A stretch of 59,817 nt of DNA, the filler included. It is 5 parts of 5 records of this genome, joined end to end, with 100 filler letters (N's around TTAATTAATTAA, not from the genome) between each part and the next. Parts side by side here need not be neighbours in the genome. Positions count along the whole stretch, not along the records: positions 1 to 11,829 come from SRR31156797_15717; 4 more parts are not named here. The stretch is one strand, 5' to 3'. Positions 1-51,836 of this stretch are shown piece after piece; positions within the stretch are counted from its first letter, which is position 1; each line of letters begins with the position of its first letter. The notes below the pieces were generated by a model. It saw only the letters and a list, made by a program, of their open reading frames with translations. It was not told where the DNA came from and did not search any database. Position numbers and translations under genes: made by a program.

Positions 1-31
1 TTGAGAATATCGTCAAATAAGTTGAGAATAG
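1..31 (+). repeat. Left-end TnsB-binding-like repeats
   Basis: TTGAGAATA at 1-9 (truncated copy) and TCGTCAAATAAGTTGAGAATAG at 10-31, 21-bp period. Confidence 0.8.
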
Positions 32-33
32 AA

Positions 34-68
34 GAAGCAAGTACTTTATTGATATATGTACTTGCTTC
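34..68. repeat. Perfect 11-bp inverted repeat (hairpin) just inside the left end
   Basis: GAAGCAAGTAC (34-44), 13-nt spacer, GTACTTGCTTC (58-68), followed by ATTTTG. Confidence 0.6.
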
Positions 69-169
69 ATTTTGTATAGGGGAAGGTAATAAATTGAAAT
101 ATGTCAACACCGGAGAATAGATTATAAATATAGTTTGATTTCCTATTTATTTCAATATCAAAAGATAAC

Positions 170-1723
170 GTGGTAGAAACAAAAAGAAAACTAATAAGAT
201 ACATAAAGCCTATTAAAAATGAAAGTTTATTAAGCTTTTTGAATAGATTGAGCATTGTTAATAGAATTTCATTTTCTGTATTGCTAAGATTTATAGGGTA
301 TAACCATCATATCATAAACAATAAATATATTATCAATACACAAGATTACAATGAAGCAATTGATAATTATATCAATGTTGCTATTGTTAGTAATAATAGG
401 TTGGATGATATTTATAAAACATCCTTAGAAAATGCATTGAACTGGACTATTAGTAGTGAATACCAGGCACTAAGTCATTTGTTGAGAGTAGAGAATAAAA
501 GGTTTACTAAATTCTGCCCTTTATGTTTAAAGGAACAGTCAATACATAAGTTGTACTGGCAATATGAAGGGATGGTTTTTTGTGAAGAGCATGGAACAAA
601 ACTGCTTAACAAATGTACATATTGCAATAATAAAGCTCACGTAGAAGATATTATTATTGATCGTTGTAGAAAATGTGGAAATAGTTTTTCACAATCAGAA
701 ACAAGTAATAAACAGTACGAAATTGAATATTATAGAGAATTTGTTAAGGAAATTAGTGCTCGTAGTACTCTAAATAGAAGTAATGAATTATCTCTAAGTG
801 TTAAGAGATATGCATTTTGTGTTAAGTTTATAATTTCTAATTATGAAATTATTAAGGAAAGTATTAGATTGAATCAAGATTTTTATACGCTTTTAGAAAA
901 TGAACTGTCAGATGAGAAATTGATAAGGTTAATAGAATTGTTTTTAAAAGATCAAGGAGAGTTAATATTTCAAGTTATTATGCACGTAGCAATGAATAGT
1001 AAGCTAAATCAAACAGGAGATTTGCTTTCATACGGAAATAAAATTATACATTACAAAACAATTAATGACCAATCTGTTATTTTTACATTATTAGATGTAA
1101 ATTACGAACAACTGAAATTATTTGGAATACTAAATGATGAAAGATTAGATGAATACAACTATTGTTTTGCTAAAGCAGCCAATATTAGAGATAAGAAAAA
1201 GGATAACAAAAAGAAAATACAAAACAACAATTTCATGCAAATGAGGAATAAACATTATAGTGAAGTAGCGAAATTTAGATTTAAAGTAATTGAGCCTCTA
1301 TTATCAAGTGATAGTGACAGGAGCGCAACGGGAGCTAGAGTTAAAGAAGTAAATGATATTATTAATTCAGGCAATGAAGTAATGATAAAGCAATATTTTA
1401 GTAGCAATTTCTATTCAACTATTTCACGAAGTACTATTGGAAGGTGGGTAGGAAGGTATATCAATAGTAAAGGGGATATAAATAGCTTAATCCCTAATTA
1501 TCATAACTCAGGAGGGAGAGGGAAAATACGATTTGATAAACGGATAATAAAATACATATATGATGCAATGGAATCTAAGACAGACTATTCAAACGAGAGA
1601 ACAAAAAGAGTTATATATCAAGAAGTCAGTAACCAAGTAAAGGAATATAATATAACAGCCGATCAGCCGATAATAATGCCGTATTTAATTACCATCAGCA
1701 ACTATATAGATAGAATTGTTTAG
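170..1723 (+). CDS. tniQ: TniQ-family protein fused to a C-terminal TnsB-like DNA-binding region
   Basis: N-terminal TniQ signature (PxxxESLxSFLxRL; FCPLC..W..FCEEH..CxxC..CxxC); aa ~361-517 align collinearly with aa ~85-240 of the neighbouring TnsB. Confidence 0.85.
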   Translation: MVETKRKLIRYIKPIKNESLLSFLNRLSIVNRISFSVLLRFIGYNHHIINNKYIINTQDYNEAIDNYINVAIVSNNRLDDIYKTSLENALNWTISSEYQALSHLLRVENKRFTKFCPLCLKEQSIHKLYWQYEGMVFCEEHGTKLLNKCTYCNNKAHVEDIIIDRCRKCGNSFSQSETSNKQYEIEYYREFVKEISARSTLNRSNELSLSVKRYAFCVKFIISNYEIIKESIRLNQDFYTLLENELSDEKLIRLIELFLKDQGELIFQVIMHVAMNSKLNQTGDLLSYGNKIIHYKTINDQSVIFTLLDVNYEQLKLFGILNDERLDEYNYCFAKAANIRDKKKDNKKKIQNNNFMQMRNKHYSEVAKFRFKVIEPLLSSDSDRSATGARVKEVNDIINSGNEVMIKQYFSSNFYSTISRSTIGRWVGRYINSKGDINSLIPNYHNSGGRGKIRFDKRIIKYIYDAMESKTDYSNERTKRVIYQEVSNQVKEYNITADQPIIMPYLITISNYIDRIV

Positions 1724-1762
1724 TAGAATGTAACAATTTATCTAATATGGTCATAATAAAAA

Positions 1763-3607
1763 ATGAAATATTTATTATTGATCGGAGTTGAATTTACATT
1801 GGCATATTCTTTTAATTTGATGAAATGTTTTCTAAAAGAAGAAGAATGTTTTTCTAGTTATTTACAAAGGTTGGCTAAAATATATTATGCGAACAATCAT
1901 GATATTTGGAGAAAAATTGCACGGGAAGGAGTACATTATCCACAAGCACAAATCTCAAAATCAATAGATATTACCCCCCACACGATTATTGATTTAGCTA
2001 AAGTAGAAAAACTGCTGCACTTGACTGAAAACCAAGTCAATAGGGCTAGCTTTCATAAAGTATATAACTTATTTTCAATACCAAGAGATAAAATGGCTCA
2101 TAGTAATTTGTTGATAAAATGTGTAAATTCATATCGAAATTATTGTCCAATTTGTTTACAGGAAGAAGAAAAATATAAACTAATGTGGCAAGTTAAAGAA
2201 ATGAGTTTTTGTAATATACATCATGTAAAACTATATGATAGATGCTGGTACTGTAATAAACAGATTCCAATATTACCAGCTAACTCACAAATAGCTATTT
2301 GCCCTTATTGTAACAGTAAACTTTATATAGCTCCTATACATAGAGTGGAGATAGAGTTTGAAGATACGAAAAGAATAGAGGAAGATTGGGAGTATCTATT
2401 AGGTGATGAAATTGTAAAATTTCAACCTTTTAATGGTTGTAATGTGGGACAAACGATAGCATTAAAGTTGATGGCTATAAGCAATGATTCAAACAATGCT
2501 TATCTTCTACAGAAAGCAAGAAATACAAGTGTAAGCAATTCGGAATTTAGTTTAGTGAACTTATTAGGATTGGTTAGAAAGTATAAAGTTTCATTGAAGG
2601 CGTTTTTTAAGTTTCAATTACCAAATCAATTTGTTAACAAGGTTATATCACCGAATAAAATGAGTATAGAAAATTATTCTTGTTTAGCACCTTGGTGTAA
2701 GAATTATCAAAAGAAAGGTAAATTATGTAGAACATCTACATCAAGTAGAAAAAAGAAGGATGGAACAGTTGATAATTTCTACATGTATTGTCCGGAATGC
2801 AGTATAGAATATTGCGTATGCAATGGAGACAAACGTTTAAAAGAAAGAGGATATTTTATTGATCTAGCATGGCATAGTGTAAGAAATAGAATTGAAAATA
2901 CGGCTTCGATTAAACAACTTGCTGTTGATTTAGCATGTACAGAAGACATAATTAAGCGGTGCATTATTTTTTTGGCAACAAACAAGCTTATAGACCTTAA
3001 AGATTGTAAACTACCTTTAAAATTGCCTATAAAAACCGATGATTTAAAACTGAATGAATTTTGTGAGAACATCAAGAAAGTTAATAACATCAAAGAAATT
3101 AAGAAGTTAATGGGACTATATTATAATGAGTTTTTGTTTTACAGAATGAACGCAAAAGCTAGATTAGAGAATATTCGAAATAAAATAGCGAGACCAGATA
3201 AAAAGCAGGATAATTATCCTAAATATGCTAAGAAAATTCATGAGTCAATCAAGAAATGTAGAGTACGAAATATTCCAATCACTATAAATAGAATTTCTAT
3301 GATGACTAATATTTGCCCTGAAACTATCAGAAAATATGGATTTTTCAACACAATCAAAGAAGAAAAGAATATGCAAACTGAAGTTATACGAAATAAAGAA
3401 AGAGAAAAATTAAGAATTCTGGCTAAAGAGATTATAGATCAAGCAATTTCAACAGGACAAACAATTGATAGTACTGCGTTATACAAAAGATTAGGCTGTT
3501 CTAGAACGTTTTTAGCAAGAAAATATCCAGACTTAACAAAATATATATACGAATTACTAAAAGATTATAGGAGGAAAAAGACATGTATGTATCAGCTAGA
3601 AAAATAA
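1763..3607 (+). CDS. TnsD-like TniQ-family target selector with long C-terminal extension (real start possibly TTG at 1799)
   Basis: ECFSSYLQRL, YCPICL..W..FCNIH..CWYC..CPYC TniQ motifs; extra Cys cluster (CLAPWC..CPEC) and basic HTH-like C-terminus; GGAG upstream of TTG 1799. Confidence 0.85.
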   Translation: MKYLLLIGVEFTLAYSFNLMKCFLKEEECFSSYLQRLAKIYYANNHDIWRKIAREGVHYPQAQISKSIDITPHTIIDLAKVEKLLHLTENQVNRASFHKVYNLFSIPRDKMAHSNLLIKCVNSYRNYCPICLQEEEKYKLMWQVKEMSFCNIHHVKLYDRCWYCNKQIPILPANSQIAICPYCNSKLYIAPIHRVEIEFEDTKRIEEDWEYLLGDEIVKFQPFNGCNVGQTIALKLMAISNDSNNAYLLQKARNTSVSNSEFSLVNLLGLVRKYKVSLKAFFKFQLPNQFVNKVISPNKMSIENYSCLAPWCKNYQKKGKLCRTSTSSRKKKDGTVDNFYMYCPECSIEYCVCNGDKRLKERGYFIDLAWHSVRNRIENTASIKQLAVDLACTEDIIKRCIIFLATNKLIDLKDCKLPLKLPIKTDDLKLNEFCENIKKVNNIKEIKKLMGLYYNEFLFYRMNAKARLENIRNKIARPDKKQDNYPKYAKKIHESIKKCRVRNIPITINRISMMTNICPETIRKYGFFNTIKEEKNMQTEVIRNKEREKLRILAKEIIDQAISTGQTIDSTALYKRLGCSRTFLARKYPDLTKYIYELLKDYRRKKTCMYQLEK

Positions 3608-4254
3608 GCAATATTAGATCGAAAAAGAATACAGGGGCTTTTCCAAGCAAAAAAATGAAAATAAATATTGAGTATGAATCTTTACTTGAAAGAGATTATT
3701 TCTATTGGCTAGAATATGACAGACAGGTAAAACGATTTTCAGCGCAGCCAGTAACGATTGAGTATAAAGATTCAAATAAAAGGAAAAGAAGATATACTCC
3801 TGATTGCTATTTTGAGACTGTATATGGAAAAGAGTATCTAGTTGAGATTAAGCCTAGAGAAAAACTTGATAAAATTCTTTCAGATGAGTCAAAACGAATT
3901 AAGTATGATGCTGCATATACATATTGTAGCAATAATAACATGATGTTTATTATTGTTACGGAGAAAGAAATACATAAAAGTAGCATCCTTAAAAATATTA
4001 AATATTTACATGGTTTTTCTAATATAAGCGTTCCGGATGATTTTGTTGAAATGGTTGTTAGACATATTGATTTAAATACCCCATTGTGTATAGGTGAAAT
4101 AATGGAGATTAATAAAAGTTTCGATATGGACAAGGCATATCAATATATGATGAATATGATATATTTTGGAAAGTTATTTACAAACATGAGTAATTTATTG
4201 GCAGATAGTAGAGAAAAAACTATGGTGTATCTACGGGAGGATCAAATTGTATAG
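3583..4254 (+). CDS. tnsA: TnsA endonuclease (heteromeric transposase subunit)
   Basis: FPSxK..ESLLERD..QP..YTPD..VEIK pattern typical of TnsA; overlaps flanking genes. Confidence 0.92.
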   Translation: MYVSARKISNIRSKKNTGAFPSKKMKINIEYESLLERDYFYWLEYDRQVKRFSAQPVTIEYKDSNKRKRRYTPDCYFETVYGKEYLVEIKPREKLDKILSDESKRIKYDAAYTYCSNNNMMFIIVTEKEIHKSSILKNIKYLHGFSNISVPDDFVEMVVRHIDLNTPLCIGEIMEINKSFDMDKAYQYMMNMIYFGKLFTNMSNLLADSREKTMVYLREDQIV

Positions 4255-6424
4255 AGCACAGTTAAAGCCTAAATTAAGATTTAAGGTAGAAGATAAGGAA
4301 TATGAAATTGTAAAAATCAGCAATACCGGTTTAGTAGAGGTAGTGGATCTGAAGTATAATGATACGTTGCAGTATAAAGAGAAAGATTTAATATCACTTT
4401 GGGCACAAGAAAAATTGAGGTTTTCTGTAGAAGGTAAAAATACTAAAAAAGCAATAGGAATATCTACAGAATATGACTTTATAGATATTAGTGAGAATAA
4501 GCACTTAGAAGTTGCTAAATTTAGATATAATGTTATTTCACCACTTATAAATGCGAAGTATAGGGCTTTTGATGATATTTTAGATAGAGTCAATGAAATA
4601 AATAGTATTATAGAAAATAACTCTCAGGAAAAGGTATTTGAAGTATTAGAGTGCAATTACTATTCCAAGATTTCAAAAGCAAGCGTTTATAGATGGATTT
4701 CTGATTATCAGAAAGCGAATTGTGATATTAGAGGACTTTTTCCATCACATCATAAAAAGGGTGGGAAGAATAACAGACGTACAGACCCTATAGTAATTGC
4801 ATATATTGAAGAGGTTGTTGAGGAACGGTATAAGAAACTTAACAGAATTAATATGTCAGAAGTTCATCAGCTGGTTAGTGATAAAATAATAGAACATAAC
4901 TCTTATGCTTCAAGAAAAGTAACAAAGCCGTCTTTATCAACAGTCTCAAGATTCATAAGAAATCTTCCTGAATATGATTTAATGTGTGCAAGATATGGGA
5001 AGAGGACTGCTGACAATAAATTTAGTATGGTTGGTTCGGGGGTAGTAACCACAATTCCATTGGAAAGAGTAGAAATTGATGCAACACCAATAGATATAAT
5101 TTTAAAAATAGAAGGCGAAGAAAATATTGCAGAAAGACCCAAATTAGTAGCAGCTATAGACAAATATTCTCGAATGATTGTAGGTTTCAGCATTTGCTTG
5201 GGAAGCGTTGGATGGTCTGAAGTGATGCAATGCATGCGTCATATTATGATGGATAAAAGCTATATAAAAGATAAATATCCTGACATCGAAAATGAATGGA
5301 ATGTATTTGGAATACCTAAGACATTAGTTATTGATAATGGAAAGGAGTTCAAAAATAAAGCAATGAAAGATGCTGCTTTACAGTGTGGATTTGAACTGCA
5401 ATACTGTCCGCCTAGAACACCTGAGTGGAAAGCTTCAATAGAACGATACTTCGGTACAATGAATAAAAATTTAATTCATAACTTACCAGGCACAACTAGA
5501 TCAAATCCACAATGCTTATCAGAAGCTGAAAATCCAGTTAAGATGGCATCTATTGGATTCTGTACTTTTTTAGAGCTAGTCCATAAGTGGATAGTTGATG
5601 TGTATTCGCAGACTTACAATAAAGGACTAAAGGGAGTACCAGCAAAAGTATGGGATAAAGGAGTAGCTGAGCATCGACCTGCATGGCCTAATGATGCAAC
5701 AGAATTAGCAATTTTACTAGGAAAAGTAGAAGAAAGAAAGATAACCAGAAGGGGCATTCAATTAAATAATTTGTACTATAATTCAATAGAATTGAATCAG
5801 TTGTTACACAAACTTAACGAAAATGAGATTGATGTTAGAGTGAAAGTTAAGTACGACCCATATGATGTATCTCATGTGTATGTATTAGATAATTTTAATA
5901 ACAGCAGATGGCTCAAAATACCATCCACTAATTTAGAATATACAACTGATTTAACTGAAATGGAACACATTGAAATATGTAAGCTGACCAGAGATAGACT
6001 CGGTACGGTAGATGAAATAGGATTATCTAGGGCTAAGAGGTATATATATGATAAAGTCGATGATAATATAGAGTTTGTACAAAAAGCAAAAAAGAAAAGA
6101 GTTAATTCTAGCTCTGAAATATTGAAAGATACGGATACAAAGAAGTTTTTAAAGCCATTAGCTGATGAACAAGGAAATGGTAATAATATACTGAGCTTAG
6201 GTTATTATTATAATGCCACAATAAAAAACGAAGCAATTTTAATATCTGCAAAAGATACTAAGGAGGATATTAAAACTGAAAACACAATAAGTGGCACTAA
6301 ACAGAAAAGTGCTAAGGATAGGAATAGAAAAAAAGAAGACGACGATAATAGCAAACATAAAATAACTATAAATGATGAAAATTCTTTAGATGACGTGGAT
6401 TTGAACGATTTTCGTATTATATAG
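4247..6424 (+). CDS. tnsB: TnsB DDE transposase (Mu-like)
   Basis: VEIDAT, VIDNGKEF, IERYFGT catalytic triad motifs; N-terminal HTH domains; Mu-transposase C-terminal region (YDPYDVS); charged tail. Confidence 0.95.
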   Translation: MYRAQLKPKLRFKVEDKEYEIVKISNTGLVEVVDLKYNDTLQYKEKDLISLWAQEKLRFSVEGKNTKKAIGISTEYDFIDISENKHLEVAKFRYNVISPLINAKYRAFDDILDRVNEINSIIENNSQEKVFEVLECNYYSKISKASVYRWISDYQKANCDIRGLFPSHHKKGGKNNRRTDPIVIAYIEEVVEERYKKLNRINMSEVHQLVSDKIIEHNSYASRKVTKPSLSTVSRFIRNLPEYDLMCARYGKRTADNKFSMVGSGVVTTIPLERVEIDATPIDIILKIEGEENIAERPKLVAAIDKYSRMIVGFSICLGSVGWSEVMQCMRHIMMDKSYIKDKYPDIENEWNVFGIPKTLVIDNGKEFKNKAMKDAALQCGFELQYCPPRTPEWKASIERYFGTMNKNLIHNLPGTTRSNPQCLSEAENPVKMASIGFCTFLELVHKWIVDVYSQTYNKGLKGVPAKVWDKGVAEHRPAWPNDATELAILLGKVEERKITRRGIQLNNLYYNSIELNQLLHKLNENEIDVRVKVKYDPYDVSHVYVLDNFNNSRWLKIPSTNLEYTTDLTEMEHIEICKLTRDRLGTVDEIGLSRAKRYIYDKVDDNIEFVQKAKKKRVNSSSEILKDTDTKKFLKPLADEQGNGNNILSLGYYYNATIKNEAILISAKDTKEDIKTENTISGTKQKSAKDRNRKKEDDDNSKHKITINDENSLDDVDLNDFRII

Positions 6425-6428
6425 AAGT

Positions 6429-7331
6429 ATGTATATAAGGAGTTTTAGATTGAGTGATACAGCAATTAACTATAATGAAATGACAAAAAATCAAAAGCTG
6501 AAGTTTGTAGATGAATTAATAGTAGAATATCCGAAAATGAAACGAATACATCAGACTATGGAAGAATGTATTGTTAGTCCGCAGTATTCGGATTTACCTG
6601 AATGCATGAGCCTGTTAGGACCATCTAGAGCAGGAAAAACTACAACTTTAAGAAAGTTTATGGAGAGATACCCCGACACAGAGACAGAAGAAGGGCTTAC
6701 TAAGCAGATACTATATTGTGAAGTTCCTTGCCCACCAGCAATAAGTAGCTTGCCCACTTCATTGTTATATGCTTTAGGAGATCCTCTATATGATAAGGGT
6801 AGAAATATTGCACAAAGGACATTAAGGTTAGAGAATTTACTAATTGATTGTGGAGTTAAGATGATTATTTTGGATGAGGTACAACATCTTGTAGAGGGGA
6901 CAACTTCTAGGCAGCAAAGGCAAGCATCAGATTGGTTTAAGAACATTATTAATAAAACAAAGATACCTGTTGTGTTTTCAGGACTAGATAGTAGTTCCTT
7001 AATATTTGAGGTTAACAGTCAACTAAAAGCAAGAGTATTAAATAACTTCAGAATAGCACCATTCAGAATAACAGACAAAGAGTTTAAAGCAATTGTACAT
7101 GTAATAGATTCAAAGCTACCAATAAAAGGACAATCAGATTTTGTAGCTACAGGATTGTGGAAAGAGATATATGACGCTACAGAGGGACATTTAGGTTATT
7201 TGAAGGTGTTGATTAAGGAAAGTGTTAAAATAGCGATAGAAAAGGAATATGACGTTGTTACGAGACCTGTGTTAGCCAAGGCTTATCAAAATAAGTTGAC
7301 TAGAGTAATAAACAACAATCCCTTTTTGTAG
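6429..7331 (+). CDS. tnsC: TnsC/TniB AAA+ ATPase (short form)
   Basis: Walker A GPSRAGKT, Walker B IILDEVQH; directly follows tnsB. Confidence 0.93.
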   Translation: MYIRSFRLSDTAINYNEMTKNQKLKFVDELIVEYPKMKRIHQTMEECIVSPQYSDLPECMSLLGPSRAGKTTTLRKFMERYPDTETEEGLTKQILYCEVPCPPAISSLPTSLLYALGDPLYDKGRNIAQRTLRLENLLIDCGVKMIILDEVQHLVEGTTSRQQRQASDWFKNIINKTKIPVVFSGLDSSSLIFEVNSQLKARVLNNFRIAPFRITDKEFKAIVHVIDSKLPIKGQSDFVATGLWKEIYDATEGHLGYLKVLIKESVKIAIEKEYDVVTRPVLAKAYQNKLTRVINNNPFL

Positions 7332-7441
7332 TGAGTTTAATAAAGGTATTTATATATTAAATAACTTATTGACGTAACAACGAATAAGATAAGTATCAGC
7401 TAATAAACTTATATATTAATATCCTGACCATATACAAAGAG

Positions 7442-7585
7442 CCGTTGCTGTATGCTCAAGCTGATGATAGGATTCAGCCTGATAAGACATATTCTATTGA
7501 TAGGAATAAAACTATTGTTTGGGCATTAGATTTAAATGTTGATTTTTCTGAAATAAAAGCGTAATTAGATTAGCTAGTTTATTAG
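7442..7585 (+). pseudogene. Remnant of the C-terminus of an McrC-type restriction subunit
   Basis: Manual translation PLLYAQADDRIQPDKTYSIDRNKTIVWALDLNVDFSEIKA*LD*LVY* resembles the recalled McrC C-terminal pattern (LLYA..IQPD..Y..LDLN.DF.EI); no start, internal stops. Confidence 0.6.
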
Positions 7586-7613
7586 TGGCAAACATATTAT
7601 TAGTGTATTAGAA

Positions 7614-7806
7614 TGGCCTGACCCCATAAAAGCGATCCGGGTTGAAAGCACATAATTGTAGCTGATATAATAAAAAATAAGGAGCAACAATTATGCCAAG
7701 AAAGAATTATACTGCGAAACAAATTCTCAGCAAACTACGAGAAGCAAAAGCAAATTTATCACAAGGTATATCAGCATATTCAGGCGACACAACTAAGAGA
7801 GATTAG
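7614..7806 (+). pseudogene. IS3-family remnant (left inverted repeat plus truncated OrfA)
   Basis: TGGCCTGACCCC end-like sequence at 7614; AAGGAG RBS; ORF 7693-7806 MPRKNYTAKQILSKLREAKANLSQG resembles the IS3/IS407 OrfA N-terminus but stops after 37 aa. Confidence 0.7.
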
Positions 7807-7997
7807 GAATGCTATGGGGACAACGTATGATGAACTTTTGAAATGAAATATGCGAGGTATAATAAAGAACTTATTTACTTTAGTTCGTGAAGCAATGTTA
7901 CTATTATGTTAATTAAATGTTCTTCTAATTGAAAGAAATAGTTTATATTCAGTTGTGATATTGTGCCATGTGAAGTATAATTATTTTAAAAAGTAGA

Positions 7998-9770
7998 TTG
8001 GAGAAGATGATGAAAGATGGATATATAGTAGACTATATTTCAGGTAATAAAGTAAAAGTTACACCAGAAGAAGTAGAAGCTGTACAAGTATTTTCAGAGA
8101 TTCTAGTTGAAGATTATGGGTACCCTAAAGAATATATAAAAACACATCCACAACACAGAGTCAAAGTTAGACCAAGTGATGTAAACAAGGAGTATCCAAT
8201 TGATATTGGAGTTTTTAATAATGATACAAAATCAGATGACGATATTTATATAGTAGTTGAGTGTAAGAAAAAGACTAGAAAAGATGGACGTAGCCAATTA
8301 GAAGATTATCTTAGATTCTGTAAAGCACAGTTAGGTGTTTGGTTTAATGGTGAAGAAAGATTTTTCTTGCTTAAACAGGAAAAAGATGGTTTAGTTGAGT
8401 TTTTTGAAATACCAAATATTCCAAAATACGGACAAAGACTAGAAGATATTGGTAAGTTTAAAAGGTCTGATTTAAAACCAACACATAATTTGAAAGCTAC
8501 GTTTAAAGCAATTAGGAATCACTTAGCAGCAAATACAGTAGGAGCAACAAGAGATGAAGTTTTGGCTCAACAACTAATAAATATAATCTTTTGTAAGATA
8601 TATGATGAGCGTTTCACTGAACCTGAAAAAATTGTTACATTTAGAGCTGGTTACAATGAAGAACCAAGTAAGGTAAAAGAACGTCTACTAAAGTTATTTG
8701 AAAGAGTAAAAAGAAAGTATAAAGAGGTAATGGATCAAACCGATGCAATTACACTTGATGAAAATAGTATTGTATACGTTATTGGAGAACTTCAAAACTA
8801 TTGTTTAATTGAGGCTGAAAGAGATATGGTAGCTGACGCATTCGAAGTATTCATTGGACATGCGTTAAAAGGTGGACAAGGCCAATTCTTTACTCCTAGA
8901 AATGTTGTTAAAATGATAGTCGATATTCTTGATCCTACAGATGAAGACAATATTATTGACCCATCATGTGGTAGTGGTGGATTCTTAGTTGAATCATTAC
9001 GACATGTATGGAGCAAGCTGGATGAAGAGGGAAAGAAGTATCATTGGAATGCTGCAAATCTTAAAGAAGAAAAAATGGAAGTTGCATTGAATAAAATTTG
9101 CGGAATTGATAAGGACTATTTTTTGTCTAAAGTTGCTAAAGCATATATGGCTATATTAGGTGATGGGAAGAGTGGTATTTTCTGTGAAGATAGCTTGGAA
9201 AATCCCCATAACTGGAATGATAAAACCCGTATTAAAATAAATAAAGGAAAATTTTCTGTATTATTAACTAATCCTCCTTTTGGTTCAAAAATACCAGTAA
9301 GAGGAGAAGAAAAGTTAAAGCAATATGAGTTAGCTCATAAATGGAAATATGATAAGAAAATAAATGAGTGGGTGATGGGTAAGTTGAAAGAGAAAGAATC
9401 ACCTCAAGTACTGTTTATTGAAAGAAACTTAGAATTGTTAGCAGATAAAGGTCGAATGGGCATCGTATTACCAGATGGTGTGTTTGGGAATGATACATTT
9501 GGTTATATTAGAAATTGGTTAAAGAATAAAGGCAGAATTCTTGCGGTAATTGATATACCAATTGAAACTTTTCAGCCCAATACTTCTACAAAAACAACGG
9601 TCTTAATATTTCAAAAGTTACAAGAGAGTGAGATACCTGATGACTATGAAATATTTATGGCAATTGCTGAATCTTGTGGTCATGATAGACGTGGTAATGA
9701 AATAGCCAGTGATGATATTGCAAAAGTATCAGGAGCATATATAGAATGGTTAGCAAAACAGAAGATTTAG
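7998..9770 (+). CDS. Fused restriction endonuclease / N6-adenine methyltransferase (Type IIB/IIG-like RM subunit; real start probably ATG 8007 or 8010)
   Basis: N-terminal HsdR_N-like nuclease motif (IDI..VECKK); GQFFTPR, DPSCGSGGFL (motif I), NPPF (motif IV). Confidence 0.9.
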   Translation: MEKMMKDGYIVDYISGNKVKVTPEEVEAVQVFSEILVEDYGYPKEYIKTHPQHRVKVRPSDVNKEYPIDIGVFNNDTKSDDDIYIVVECKKKTRKDGRSQLEDYLRFCKAQLGVWFNGEERFFLLKQEKDGLVEFFEIPNIPKYGQRLEDIGKFKRSDLKPTHNLKATFKAIRNHLAANTVGATRDEVLAQQLINIIFCKIYDERFTEPEKIVTFRAGYNEEPSKVKERLLKLFERVKRKYKEVMDQTDAITLDENSIVYVIGELQNYCLIEAERDMVADAFEVFIGHALKGGQGQFFTPRNVVKMIVDILDPTDEDNIIDPSCGSGGFLVESLRHVWSKLDEEGKKYHWNAANLKEEKMEVALNKICGIDKDYFLSKVAKAYMAILGDGKSGIFCEDSLENPHNWNDKTRIKINKGKFSVLLTNPPFGSKIPVRGEEKLKQYELAHKWKYDKKINEWVMGKLKEKESPQVLFIERNLELLADKGRMGIVLPDGVFGNDTFGYIRNWLKNKGRILAVIDIPIETFQPNTSTKTTVLIFQKLQESEIPDDYEIFMAIAESCGHDRRGNEIASDDIAKVSGAYIEWLAKQKI

Positions 9771-9782
9771 TGGAGGCATAGT

Positions 9783-11186
9783 ATGAAACAATTCACAATT
9801 AAAAAAAGTGATTTGAAGTTTGGAGACAGGCTTGTACCAACATTTTATTATTATACTAAAGTAGTTATAAATGAATATGTAAAAAAAGGTGTTAGGTATG
9901 CTTGTCTAGGAGATCATTGTAATGTGTCAGATGGAGAACACTCACATATAAGTAGAAATGATAAATCTGGAATAAGATATCTTTACGGCAGAAATATTAA
10001 AGAAGGAGTAATTAACTTCGATCCAATTTCAGATGATTCCTTTATAACAGAAAGTGATTATGACGACAACAAGAGGTGTCATATTAATGAAAATGATGTT
10101 TTAATCGCAATTTATGGTACTATTGGTAAATCAGCAGTATATAAATCAAAATATGTTGGAGTAGCAGGAATACCAAGACATATATCAAATATTACAGTAA
10201 AAGAGAAGGCTGGATTCACACCTGAATATTTGTCTTCTTATTTTAGAAGTAGAGCAGGGAAGTGGCAACTATTTAGTGTTACAACAGGCAACATTCAACA
10301 ACTTCTATCACTAAAAAATATAAGAGCTCTTGATATACCTATTGCAGGAGATTCTTTCATTGATGAAATAACAAAGATAGAAAGGAATGCGATAAACCAT
10401 GAAATTAAAGCTTTGGAGAACATTGAAATAGCAAAAGATCTATTATACAATAACTTAAATTTTGGTATAAAAGATATTACTAGAGATTTTTCTTTTACTG
10501 TTAATAGTGAGGAGTTGTTTTACACTAATTACTGGTCAACTAGTTTTTATGATAAGTTATACATTAAAGTAGCTGACGAATTGGTCTGCAATAATGGAGC
10601 ACTTCAGCTGGGTAAAATCGCATCTGTTCAAAATGGAGATGAAGTAGGAAGTATAAACTATAATGAGTTTATACATAGACATAACGAGGATAAGTCATTT
10701 ATAAGAACATCAGATATTGTGAACTATGAAATGGATCTTTACCCAGACTATTATATTGAAGCAGAGGTTTCAAATGAAATAGTACAAGATATTCAACCTA
10801 GAGATATAGTTTTTACAAAAGATGGGAAAATAGCAAGTGTAGGTATGATAACTGATGAAGATAATGTTATTATTTCATCAGGTATTGCTCGGTTAAGATT
10901 AAAACAAGATGCAATTGATCTTGGTTGGACACAAGAATATTTATTTATTGCTCTGTCTATACCTGAAATTGGAAGATATGCTGCGATAAGAAGAACTGTG
11001 ATTGCTTCAACAATACCTCATTTAAGAGAGGCAAGGTTAAAAGAGATTGAAATACCTATTATTGAGAAAAAGTATGTTGATGAAATCACAAAACTAGTTG
11101 AAGAAGCATTTAGACTTAAAGGAAAAAGAAAAAAACTACTAAAGCAGTCAAACAATATGTTTGAAGAGTATTTCAATTTAACGTAG
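9783..11186 (+). CDS. Restriction-modification specificity (S) subunit with two TRDs
   Basis: Two repeated TRD plus helical units (ND VLIA..GTIG..IPI; RDIVF..DGKI..IPI); GGAGG RBS; follows the RM gene. Confidence 0.85.
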   Translation: MKQFTIKKSDLKFGDRLVPTFYYYTKVVINEYVKKGVRYACLGDHCNVSDGEHSHISRNDKSGIRYLYGRNIKEGVINFDPISDDSFITESDYDDNKRCHINENDVLIAIYGTIGKSAVYKSKYVGVAGIPRHISNITVKEKAGFTPEYLSSYFRSRAGKWQLFSVTTGNIQQLLSLKNIRALDIPIAGDSFIDEITKIERNAINHEIKALENIEIAKDLLYNNLNFGIKDITRDFSFTVNSEELFYTNYWSTSFYDKLYIKVADELVCNNGALQLGKIASVQNGDEVGSINYNEFIHRHNEDKSFIRTSDIVNYEMDLYPDYYIEAEVSNEIVQDIQPRDIVFTKDGKIASVGMITDEDNVIISSGIARLRLKQDAIDLGWTQEYLFIALSIPEIGRYAAIRRTVIASTIPHLREARLKEIEIPIIEKKYVDEITKLVEEAFRLKGKRKKLLKQSNNMFEEYFNLT

Positions 11187-11310
11187 AATATCATTTTATC
11201 AATATATTGAATGATGAAGGAAACATAACAATTTAATAGGTTGGTTTATAGTTTGACTTCTTTTTGATTTTATAAAAGATTGCATTGAAATCAATATCAG
11301 TAGTAAACAA

Positions 11311-11673
11311 ATGAAGAAAACAATCTTGACCGAAGCAATATTACTTGTAAATTCAAAACAAGCACTTGATTTGTTAACTGAGAGAGTTGAGAGATACTCA
11401 AATATGATAGGTACAACTGCAGATTCAATAAAAATTACTGAGGCTAAATCAAGATGGGGATCTTGTAGTTTTAAGAATAATCTGAATTTTGCATGGAGAT
11501 TAATTCTTTGTCCATTGCCAGTGATTGATTATGTAGTCGTACATGAATTGTGTCATATAGAGTATAAAAATCATAATAATAAGTTTTGGACAAAAGTGAG
11601 AACAGTACTACCTAAATATCAAGAAGAGCAAAACTGGTTGAAGGCTAACAAAAGAGTGATGGAGATAATTTGA
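11311..11673 (+). CDS. M48/YgjP (DUF45)-like zinc metallopeptidase, N-terminally truncated
   Basis: SRWGSCS and IDYVVVHELCH..H..FW motifs; only 120 aa. Confidence 0.8.
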   Translation: MKKTILTEAILLVNSKQALDLLTERVERYSNMIGTTADSIKITEAKSRWGSCSFKNNLNFAWRLILCPLPVIDYVVVHELCHIEYKNHNNKFWTKVRTVLPKYQEEQNWLKANKRVMEII

Positions 11674-11731
11674 ACGCACTAAAAGCGAATGGATTATCAG
11701 CTTGAGATTGTTAGAAGCTTGTTACAGTGAG

Positions 11732-11829
11732 ATTTCTCAATGGTGTGTTTTATTCTCAACTTCTATGAATAATAAGAGATAAAGTTCTTATTTTAAGGCA
11801 ACTCTATTCTCAACTTTTATGACGACTTA
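11732..11829 (-). repeat. Right-end TnsB-binding-like repeats
   Basis: Reverse complement of 11804-11825 is TCGTCATAAAAGTTGAGAATAG (20/22 match to 10-31); second copy at 11751-11768; weak third copy near 11732-11741. Confidence 0.85.
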
Positions 11830-11929
11830 NNNNNNNNNNNNNNNNNNNNNNNNNNNNNNNNNNNNNNNNNNNNTTAATTAATTAANNNNNNNNNNNNNNN
11901 NNNNNNNNNNNNNNNNNNNNNNNNNNNNN
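11830..11929. other. Artificial contig spacer
   Basis: N runs flanking TTAATTAATTAA; base composition changes across it. Confidence 0.99.
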
Positions 11930-19709: not shown

Positions 19710-19809
19710 NNNNNNNNNNNNNNNNNNNNNNNNNNNNNNNNNNNNNNNNNNNNTTAATTAATTAANNNNNNNNNNNNNNNNNNNNNNNNNNNNNNNNNNN
19801 NNNNNNNNN
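19710..19809. other. Artificial contig spacer
   Basis: N runs flanking TTAATTAATTAA. Confidence 0.99.
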
Positions 19810-34699: not shown

Positions 34700-34799
34700 N
34701 NNNNNNNNNNNNNNNNNNNNNNNNNNNNNNNNNNNNNNNNNNNTTAATTAATTAANNNNNNNNNNNNNNNNNNNNNNNNNNNNNNNNNNNNNNNNNNNN
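34700..34799. other. Artificial contig spacer
   Basis: N runs flanking TTAATTAATTAA. Confidence 0.99.
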
Positions 34800-51736: not shown

Positions 51737-51836
51737 NNNNNNNNNNNNNNNNNNNNNNNNNNNNNNNNNNNNNNNNNNNNTTAATTAATTAANNNNNNNN
51801 NNNNNNNNNNNNNNNNNNNNNNNNNNNNNNNNNNNN
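51737..51836. other. Artificial contig spacer
   Basis: N runs flanking TTAATTAATTAA. Confidence 0.99.

Follow-up and report, generated by a model that had tools for sequence, protein, structure and literature searches.

Why would a protein that chooses the landing site of a transposon carry the domains with which a transposase reads transposon ends? The question is raised by tniQ1 (positions 170–1723, + strand; 517 amino acids [aa], GTG start), the first gene of a Tn7-like element found in the window, the whole stretch of 59,817 bases that was analysed, where it occupies the contig 1–11829. The original prediction described TniQ1 as a TniQ target selector fused to a paralogue of the end-binding domains of the element's own TnsB, and proposed that it may direct insertion beside the ends of related transposons. 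We find that the fusion is real, conserved and very rare, with a single full-length example as its basis, and we take up below what its two parts retain, where the second part came from, which DNA it may read and what it may do for the element.

The first part of the protein (aa 1–343, positions 170..1198, +), which comprises Hel1, a zinc finger and a helical region according to Pfam, alignment and an AlphaFold2 (AF2) model, is an intact TniQ core. Residues 12–145 match Pfam TniQ (PF06527) with 48.8 bits against a cut-off of 27 (E 1.5e-12), and the zinc-finger ligands C116, C119, C138, H141, C149, C152, C166 and C169 are invariant in the seven sequences (7/7) of alignment A3. The AF2 model of full-length TniQ1 has a mean predicted local distance difference test score (pLDDT) of 71.6; it is confident over most of aa 10–180 and 360–517 and poor over 278–359, with 10-residue blocks averaging 81–96 at aa 11–80 and 111–180 and pLDDT below 50 at aa 321–359. 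When this model was searched with Foldseek, the 18 best listed rows were all TniQ or TnsD, followed by TnsB and MuA, and the comparison with 8bd5_Q gave E 2.3e-5, TMt 0.72 and a root-mean-square deviation (rmsd) of 3.5. The gene order is tniQ1–tniQ2–tnsA–tnsB–tnsC, all on the + strand, and inverted 22-bp boxes lie at both contig ends. By domain score, zinc ligands, fold and a tnsABC operon between Tn7-type ends, TniQ1 is a member of the TniQ family, as had been claimed.

Beyond a Lys/Asn-rich linker whose structure is predicted with low confidence by pLDDT (aa 344–362, positions 1199..1255, +), BLASTP, alignment and AF2 identify a TnsB-derived tail (aa 363–517 and the stop codon, positions 1256..1723, +). 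The near-gapless alignment to TnsB at about 30% identity, counted by hand in the original prediction, is confirmed by BLASTP against the TnsB open reading frame (ORF): TniQ1 354–513 aligns with TnsB 77–237 (positions 4475–4957, +) with 50/161 residues identical (31%), 88/161 positives and 1 gap, at 88.6 bits and an E value, for this single comparison, of 1e-22. A phmmer search of the tail against all ORFs of the locus found the element's own TnsB at E 1.3e-23. The open frame of the tail is not a product of chance, since each of the remaining five frames of nucleotides (nt) 1229–1720 contains 8–28 stops per ~163 codons, in DNA of 30% GC. The description of this TnsB as adjacent has to be corrected, because tniQ2 and tnsA separate tniQ1 from tnsB.

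The limits of the tail are informative about what it could do. It contains DNA-binding domain 1 (DBD1), the minor-groove linker (LIPNYHNSGGRGKIR) and DBD2, and ends just past the DBD2 recognition helix; it is without the N-terminal ~85 aa of TnsB, the terminus-gripping segment, the DDE core, the beta-barrel and the C-terminal TnsC-binding tail. That the copy halts before the DDE core, as proposed, is clear from a 12-sequence alignment, in which the ORF ends one column ahead of the TnsB catalytic entry IPEY..GKR..ERVEID, and Pfam found no match to rve or Mu-transpos_C in TniQ1. The protein as predicted cannot be a transposase. In the same alignment W, D, L, P, G, R and P are invariant between the tail and the TnsBs, and the tail retains RW in the DBD1 helix and Arg in the linker, the equivalents of PseTnsB R93 and R121. 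According to a preprint, PseTnsB reads internal sites through R89 and R93 in DBD1, M115, N117 and R121 in the linker and N173 in DBD2, and holds the 8-bp terminal repeat and the terminal base, which is flipped, through F195, Q199 and H207 (bioRxiv 10.64898/2026.05.05.722991, section 8). In an alignment of the element's own TnsB with PseTnsAB, the tail spans the equivalents of R89, R93, M115, N117, R121 and N173 and ends at about PseTnsB residue 183, ahead of F195, Q199 and H207. Because it ends before these three residues and before the DDE core, it lacks terminus grip and cleavage; the tail is, as judged from its sequence, a putative box reader incapable of gripping the terminus or cutting DNA.

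Predicted structure leads to the same family. The AF2 model of the tail (aa 338–517, mean pLDDT 78.7) is all-helical and consists of two domains, and its best Foldseek match was 7pik_C, the Tn7 TnsB (E 5e-3, probability 1.00, rmsd 13.0), with ShCAST TnsB also recovered. No Foldseek match to the tail model alone reached E <= 1e-3; a high rmsd and a weak E are expected for two domains joined by a flexible linker. A second structural aligner ranked 7pik_C first (Z 8.1, 129 aligned, rmsd 12.6), then 8aa5 (6.5), 8rdu (6.3) and 9bw1_M (5.8), and beyond these four TnsB DNA-binding regions it returned generic homeodomain-type folds only (Z <= 5.0). The structural comparison suggested with the original prediction thus comes out in its favour, the four best matches of the AF2 model being TnsB N-terminal DNA-binding regions.

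Is the junction itself real? A non-functional or decaying chimera of a second tniQ with a 5′ fragment of tnsB, or an assembly artefact, would fit the existence of one full-length example, a sister known from fragments only, and word-index, contig-collection and 400-further-genome searches that returned no fusion relative. We nevertheless consider it very improbable, because the junction also lies within a fragment obtained independently, in another data set. This fragment, P0151 (236 aa), comes from a different metagenome contig than its cluster mate P0001 and aligns without gaps to TniQ1 285–517, with 159/233 residues identical (68%); it crosses the TniQ/tail junction and its stop lies 3 residues later than that of TniQ1. 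P0001 (84 aa, 64% identical) matches TniQ1 aa 437–516 and ends at TniQ1's end. An assembly chimera is ruled out by the gapless alignment across the junction. Identity between P0151 and TniQ1 is highest in the tail of the TniQ core (38/46, 83%), intermediate in the TnsB-like part (104/155, 67%) and lowest in the linker aa 331–362 (17/32, 53%). Such stronger conservation of the domains than of the linker between them argues in favour of purifying selection on each domain; together with the open frame described above it also speaks against a decaying chimera. The fusion is real and is conserved in a sister lineage, and the possibility, raised with the original prediction, of a unique fusion free of purifying selection is not borne out.

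It is also very rare. The exact TniQ1 protein is absent from a collection of 15 billion proteins. A phmmer search of 1.84 billion representatives gave 611 matches at E <= 1e-3, 150 of them listed; among the 150 listed, 140 match the TniQ part only and 9 the tail only, the latter over residues ~33–242 of proteins that resemble TnsB in their length and in where the match lies, and no other protein holds both halves together. A DBD1–DBD2 hidden Markov model (HMM) run over 152 collected proteins gave no TniQ but TniQ1 a significant tail; the best value among the others, for a 35-residue stretch, was E 0.018. When 185,579 species genomes were scanned by TnsB alignment, 63 loci were obtained, and on their six-frame ORFs the HMM recognised TnsBs, the TniQ1 of the window, a 230-aa ORF in locus L018 and a weak ORF in locus L038 only. 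The L038 ORF (L038:551–1897, −; 449 aa, HMM E 4.4e-4), from a Sandaracinobacter metagenome-assembled genome (MAG), belongs to no Pfam family and is located upstream of a gene resembling TnsAB. A tail search in 401 genomes (G001 and 400 sampled from its phylum) found only G001's own TnsB (1/401), and the five genomes holding L001, L005, L007, L008 and L009 gave separate TniQ and TnsB matches only. Plasmid tblastn with TniQ1 returned 3 records, each a partial TniQ-only match, and DNA encoding TniQ1 or P0151 was found in none of the genome, metagenome and viral contig collections. Word-index protein searches with TniQ1 (near lengths, shorter lengths and region 340–517) gave nothing, by a method insensitive enough to miss the known sister cluster. 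The search for homologues of the same architecture has therefore yielded the junction-spanning P0151 and no second full-length fusion.

Where did the tail come from? Its identity over 155 aligned columns is 32% with the element's own TnsB and 26–35% with other TnsBs of the family, and the DBD region of the own TnsB is itself only 31–40% identical to those of the family loci. In an LG+G4 tree, which omits rows P0005 and P0101 because their sequences are those of L008 and L010, the tail pairs with P0151 (support 100), and their common stem is 1.24 substitutions per site long. The pair is nested in the Bacillota family clade (support 80) and is not sister to the own TnsB, its inner placement having support of 52 and 33; the root-to-tip distance of the tail, 1.75–1.82, falls inside the TnsB range of 0.5–2.05. 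A recent duplicate of the own TnsB is ruled out by the identity matrix and the tree, which point to an old capture, with a TnsB of this Bacillota family of transposons as its probable source. The paralogy originally proposed therefore holds as far as true homology to TnsB end-binding domains goes, and fails insofar as it implied a recent copy of the element's own TnsB.

The 230-aa ORF of L018 (L018:4221–4913, +) stands alone between the right-end boxes (3918–4063) and tnsA of a Tn7-like element in an Anaerolineae MAG. It consists of a 4-Cys N-terminus and DBD1–DBD2, is 33% identical to the L018 TnsB (E 3e-25), and has the same C-terminal limit as the TniQ1 tail. Its grouping with L018's own TnsB (support 84) identifies it as an independent second birth of a DBD-only paralogue, and its existence indicates that the DBD1–DBD2 module can stand alone.

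What DNA might the tail read? The motif TCGTCAwAwAAGTTGAGAATAG, given in the original prediction, occurs exactly twice, at 10–31 (+) and 11804–11825 (−), against 0 expected in 100 shuffles. The box of L007, TCTCAAAwAGTTTGAGAATr, has similar counterparts in L001, L005, L009 and L010, and the L008 region searched contained no box cluster. The family TnsB box is near-palindromic, TCTCAAA-N4-TTTGAGA, at the ends of the window element, L001, L005, L007, L009 and L010; in L009 one box (4400, +) has the opposite orientation to the run of minus-strand boxes around it. Outgroup boxes of the Chloroflexi type are visibly different (TTTTGAGACTG in L013 and L026, TTTTTGATTCC in L018). Since the family shares its boxes despite 31–40% identity between TnsB DBDs, 26–35% identity of the tail does not imply a new specificity. 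In 17 family TnsBs, 27 columns reach a conservation of at least 85%. At these positions the tail agrees with the family in 22 cases and P0151 in 21, compared with 24 in both the own TnsB and that of L010, 17–21 in four outgroup TnsBs, three of which have visibly different boxes, and 15 in the L018 paralogue; one of the five positions lost from the tail falls beyond its end. If the tail binds DNA at all, a box-like sequence would be its probable site.

The relatives of the element help to define the place of TniQ1 among its genes. The nearest TnsBs (36–45% identity) come from Bacillota MAGs and isolates (L001–L010), whose loci run tniQ2-like, tnsA, tnsB, tnsC, often an opposite-strand second tniQ (410–493 aa), and then the end. 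In the window, tniQ2 (1763..3607, +; 614 aa, Pfam TniQ) encodes a TnsD-like selector with homologues directly upstream of tnsA in L001, L002, L004, L007, L008 and L010 (E 1e-91 to 1e-114). L007:133–14765, a relative of 14.6 kb, is complete, has TGT termini and shows a 5-bp target duplication, CGAAC. Some 30 bp separate its end beside the second tniQ from the 3′ end of a gene that we take to encode GlmS, judging by the last residues of the product, ...DKPRNLAKSVTV. The gene adjoining L007 also follows the transposition module in L002, L003 and L004 (53–55% identity). As no second TniQ is present within the L002 and L004 loci, both beside this presumed glmS, the TniQ2-like proteins are the probable TnsD analogue, homing on glmS.

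The core of TniQ1 matches the variable second TniQs at E 1e-14 to 1e-15 and the TniQ2-like proteins at E 1e-8 to 1e-14, most of them ~1e-10, and in the accessible text of one review of the field two TniQs serving two pathways are the usual Tn7-like layout (PMC11406308). Given that layout, a TnsD-like TniQ2 and a core nearer to the second TniQs, TniQ1 is by its sequence relationships an accessory selector with its tail swapped for a TnsB module. The second TniQs of the relatives have short tails unrelated to that of TniQ1; that these are decayed TnsB domains was ruled out, with no HMM match and no visible similarity. Two boxes directly abut each other at the tniQ1-side end, as they do at the glmS-proximal end of L007 beside its second tniQ, and this likeness suggests that tniQ1 is still placed as in the family, where this gene comes first after the att-proximal end, and that relative to L007 the tniQ2–tnsABC block is inverted.

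From these observations we infer DNA binding by the tail, the sequence bound, recruitment of TnsC and the site of insertion, as follows. TniQ1 may bind TnsB-box-like DNA and nucleate TnsC there, aiming insertion at family-type ends; of the functions considered here this is the one that we tentatively place first. Like TnsD and other TniQ proteins, TniQ1 would contact TnsC through its core (aa 1–343); where the second TniQ of its relatives has a small C-terminal domain, it carries a captured DBD1–linker–DBD2 end-reading module. The tail would still recognise ~22 bp of TnsB-box-like sequence (family type TCnTCAAAnAGTTTGAGAAT) but have no hold on the terminal TGT. As a result TnsC would be loaded beside DNA carrying the ends of family-type Tn7-like elements and TnsAB would insert adjacent to them. 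TniQ1 could also compete with TnsB at the boxes and so blunt target immunity. A doubtful but related proposal is of transposons homing on other transposons, in which rival or ancestral end-reading domains on TniQ turn TnsB-box arrays into attachment sites. If it were true, TnsC would be loaded while the boxes were masked from TnsB, an immune region would become a preferred landing pad, and the element could accumulate on Tn7-like elements already resident in filled glmS sites or in plasmids.

Several points weigh against insertion aimed at family-type ends. The chief one is the clash with immunity: TnsB-mediated target immunity is established in Tn7 (PMC11406308), and if the tail reads the element's own boxes, such immunity would be expected to work against insertion at them. 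All 17 family TnsBs have Tyr in the YRW motif, where the two fusion sequences have Gly or Ser, and the equivalents of PseTnsB R89, M115 and N173 are S, S and I in the tail against A, K and S in the own TnsB; these three positions vary also among TnsBs that have the same box. The sequence of P0151 opens with M opposite L285 and does not cover the full TniQ core of the sister, and the full-length fusion is known from one example. The contig ends within the terminal repeats, and neither the flanks nor the insertion site of the element or its sister were recovered from the contig collections or from run X1, which gave no element-spanning piece and for which 6/25 loose ends are listed. Run X1 contains 63% of the sampled words of nt 1–4300, in Logan contigs that are short and shallow, and run X2 does not cover the element. 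In X1 the depth summed from Logan contigs, which is not copy number, reaches 11.2 over nt 1–395, above 25 of 29 other bins (0.85–5.8), two bins standing at 35–38; one X1 contig matches nt 1–30 and then diverges into sequence that begins like another degenerate box. There are thus hints of a second locus with the same boxes in the X1 sample.

TniQ1 might instead be an ordinary TnsD-style selector whose TnsB-descended tail now recognises an unrelated plasmid, phage or chromosomal site. The C-termini of TniQ proteins are modular and have been captured from many sources, as far as the available parts of PMC11406308 and of the work on Streptomyces HA domains describe them, the capture here is old, with its stem of 1.24 substitutions per site and 26–35% identity to any TnsB, and besides the lost Tyr several contact-equivalent positions differ from the own TnsB. 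We regard such a new address as unlikely. With 22 of 27, the tail retains more of the family-conserved positions than do outgroup TnsBs with other boxes, its root-to-tip distance within the TnsB range gives no sign of a burst of change, and the fusion would have had to be useful when it formed. At its birth a new fusion would necessarily have read the TnsB box, which favours insertion at family-type ends, or action on the element's own ends, over a new address.

Action on the own ends would involve no choice of target: bound through its tail to the TnsB boxes of the element itself, TniQ1 would regulate transposition, whether in competition with TnsB or as repressor of the tniQ1–tniQ2–tnsABC operon at a promoter lying in the transposon end, modulate immunity, or tether TnsC to the donor ends. 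The position of tniQ1 as the first gene inside the end is suited to such a role, with a degenerate third box read from the sequence (..GTCAACACCGGAGAATAG; 99..120, +) lying 50 nt upstream of its start and under a promoter-like site (94–123). The promoter match is at chance level, however, the scan of nt 1–400 giving 6 sites against 4.1 ± 1.9 in shuffles, as was the terminator scan. The L018 paralogue, placed like a regulator between end boxes and tnsA, and a tail that without catalytic and terminus-gripping parts could occupy boxes without cutting also favour regulation, and transposase-derived regulators that only bind DNA are well known. Such stand-alone repressors or inhibitors include the Mu repressor, MuA N-terminal domain I-alpha, IS1 InsA and the Tn5 inhibitor, and TniQ1 shares with them a catalysis-free copy of the DNA-binding part of a transposase, expected to recognise the same sites. 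Unlike these small proteins, its tail is joined to a 343-aa TnsC-recruiting TniQ core; the 230-aa ORF of L018, which does stand alone, is the closer analogue. A simple repressor needs no intact TniQ core with all its zinc ligands, the end of that core is the segment most conserved with the sister (83%), and loading of TnsC on the own ends would risk self-insertion. The intact and conserved core favours a selector over a pure repressor, and we consider a role confined to the own ends rather unlikely. There is also a small chance that the function lies with a reading we have not formulated.

The remaining features of the window complete the picture of the element. The window joins five contigs through N44-TTAATTAATTAA-N44 linkers at 11830–11929, 19710–19809, 34700–34799 and 51737–51836; these contigs, of 31, 57, 39, 44 and 57% GC, are unrelated, and only 1–11829 belongs to the tniQ1 element, so that its neighbours across the linkers give the transposon no context. 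The contig begins within a terminal box and halts 4 nt beyond the outer box at the other end, and is therefore a nearly complete Tn7-like element of ~11.85 kb, flanks not included. The end beside tniQ1 (1..31, +) forms inverted repeats I3 and I9 with 11803–11825 and 11748–11768. It consists of a terminal TnsB box, truncated at the contig edge to its last 9 nt (1–9, +), and, directly abutting it, the complete 22-bp box TCGTCAAATAAGTTGAGAATAG (10–31, +) found by motif search; comparison with the L007 terminus TGTAAGTTCCCATAAAGTTTGAGAATGG suggests that ~19 nt are missing on this side. Between the second and third boxes beside tniQ1 lies an 11-bp perfect inverted repeat (GAAGCAAGTAC ... GTACTTGCTTC, window 36–68), which could be an operator or an RNA hairpin. 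At the opposite end (11748..11829, −) motif and inverted-repeat searches placed boxes at 11748–11768 and 11804–11825, and the contig, ending 4 nt beyond the outer box, is probably 2 nt short of the terminal TG by comparison with the L007 termini.

Downstream of tniQ2 lie tnsA (3583..4254, +; Pfam PF08722, E 3.4e-16), tnsB (4247..6424, +; 725 aa; Pfam Mu-transpos_C, with rve at 29.1 bits, under its cut-off of 32.6) and tnsC (6429..7331, +), which encodes a TniB-type AAA+ ATPase (Pfam PF05621, E 4e-30). In a PDB search the nearest TnsBs were those of CRISPR-associated transposons (CASTs) belonging to type I-F3, PseCAST TnsAB (E 1.5e-65) and Tn6677 TnsB (E 1.8e-49). The cargo comprises a MAD2-like DNA methyltransferase (7998–9770, +; NCBIfam NF047738, 422.8 bits, under the cut-off of 720), an HsdS/MAD5-like specificity subunit (9783–11186, +; NCBIfam NF047740, 102.3 bits, under the cut-off of 400) and a 120-aa ORF with an HExxH motif (11311–11673, +); no restriction subunit was found on the element (cargo 7998–11673).

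Insertion at other mobile elements has a precedent in Tn5053 and Tn402, the 'res hunters', whose TniQ-dependent insertion falls at the resolvase-bound res sites of other elements with no DNA-binding domain known to be fused to TniQ. TniQ1 as proposed here would resemble them in aiming insertion at other mobile elements and differs in carrying a fused DNA-binding domain. In its N-terminal TniQ domain with zinc finger, its C-terminal DNA-binding module, its tnsABC operon and the presence of two TniQs per element it is like TnsD and other TniQ selectors; with TnsB and MuA N-termini (7pik, 8aa5, 8rdu and PseCAST TnsAB) it shares two helical domains, the GG-K/R-x-K-x-R linker and the RW and Arg contacts, and unlike them it has no N-terminal domain, TGT-holding helix/linker, DDE core, beta-barrel or TnsC-binding tail. 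The fusion appears to be undescribed, as the original prediction supposed: full-text literature searches turned up no TniQ fused to TnsB domains, though supplementary tables could list more architectures. The TniQ tails named in the available part of Faure et al., 2023 (PMC10293859) are helix-turn-helix (HTH)-type, TnsF and a TniQ–TnsF fusion, and the sources given in the Figure 4 legend of PMC11406308 are AcrR, CI, HA, HTH and XRE; an archaeal Tn7 preprint describes TniQ–HTH_17 fusions. In these portions of PMC10293859 and PMC11406308 none is named as TnsB-derived, unlike the module of TniQ1, which is homologous to transposase DBD1–DBD2. Also close are telomeric Tn7-like elements of Streptomyces, in which TniQ carries TtrA-like HA domains and some elements have a separate, catalytically dead TnsB paralogue (bioRxiv 10.1101/2024.11.13.623437). 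There too TniQ has captured the reader domains of another protein that recognises DNA ends; the captured domain belongs to a telomere protein, and a separate full-length gene encodes the dead TnsB, whereas here a TnsB fragment is fused to TniQ.

TniQ adaptors decide where Tn7-like and CRISPR-associated transposons land, and the readers that they capture define the lifestyle of the element. A TniQ that re-uses the end-recognition module of a transposase would represent a new source of targeting domains, and the L018 paralogue suggests that TnsB DBD1–DBD2 is a reusable module. If TniQ1 does read TnsB boxes, no selector before it would have had transposon ends as its natural target, and it would bear on target immunity, on competition between elements for glmS and on the build-up of islands. 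It also suggests a simple design by which insertions could be stacked beside an existing insertion.

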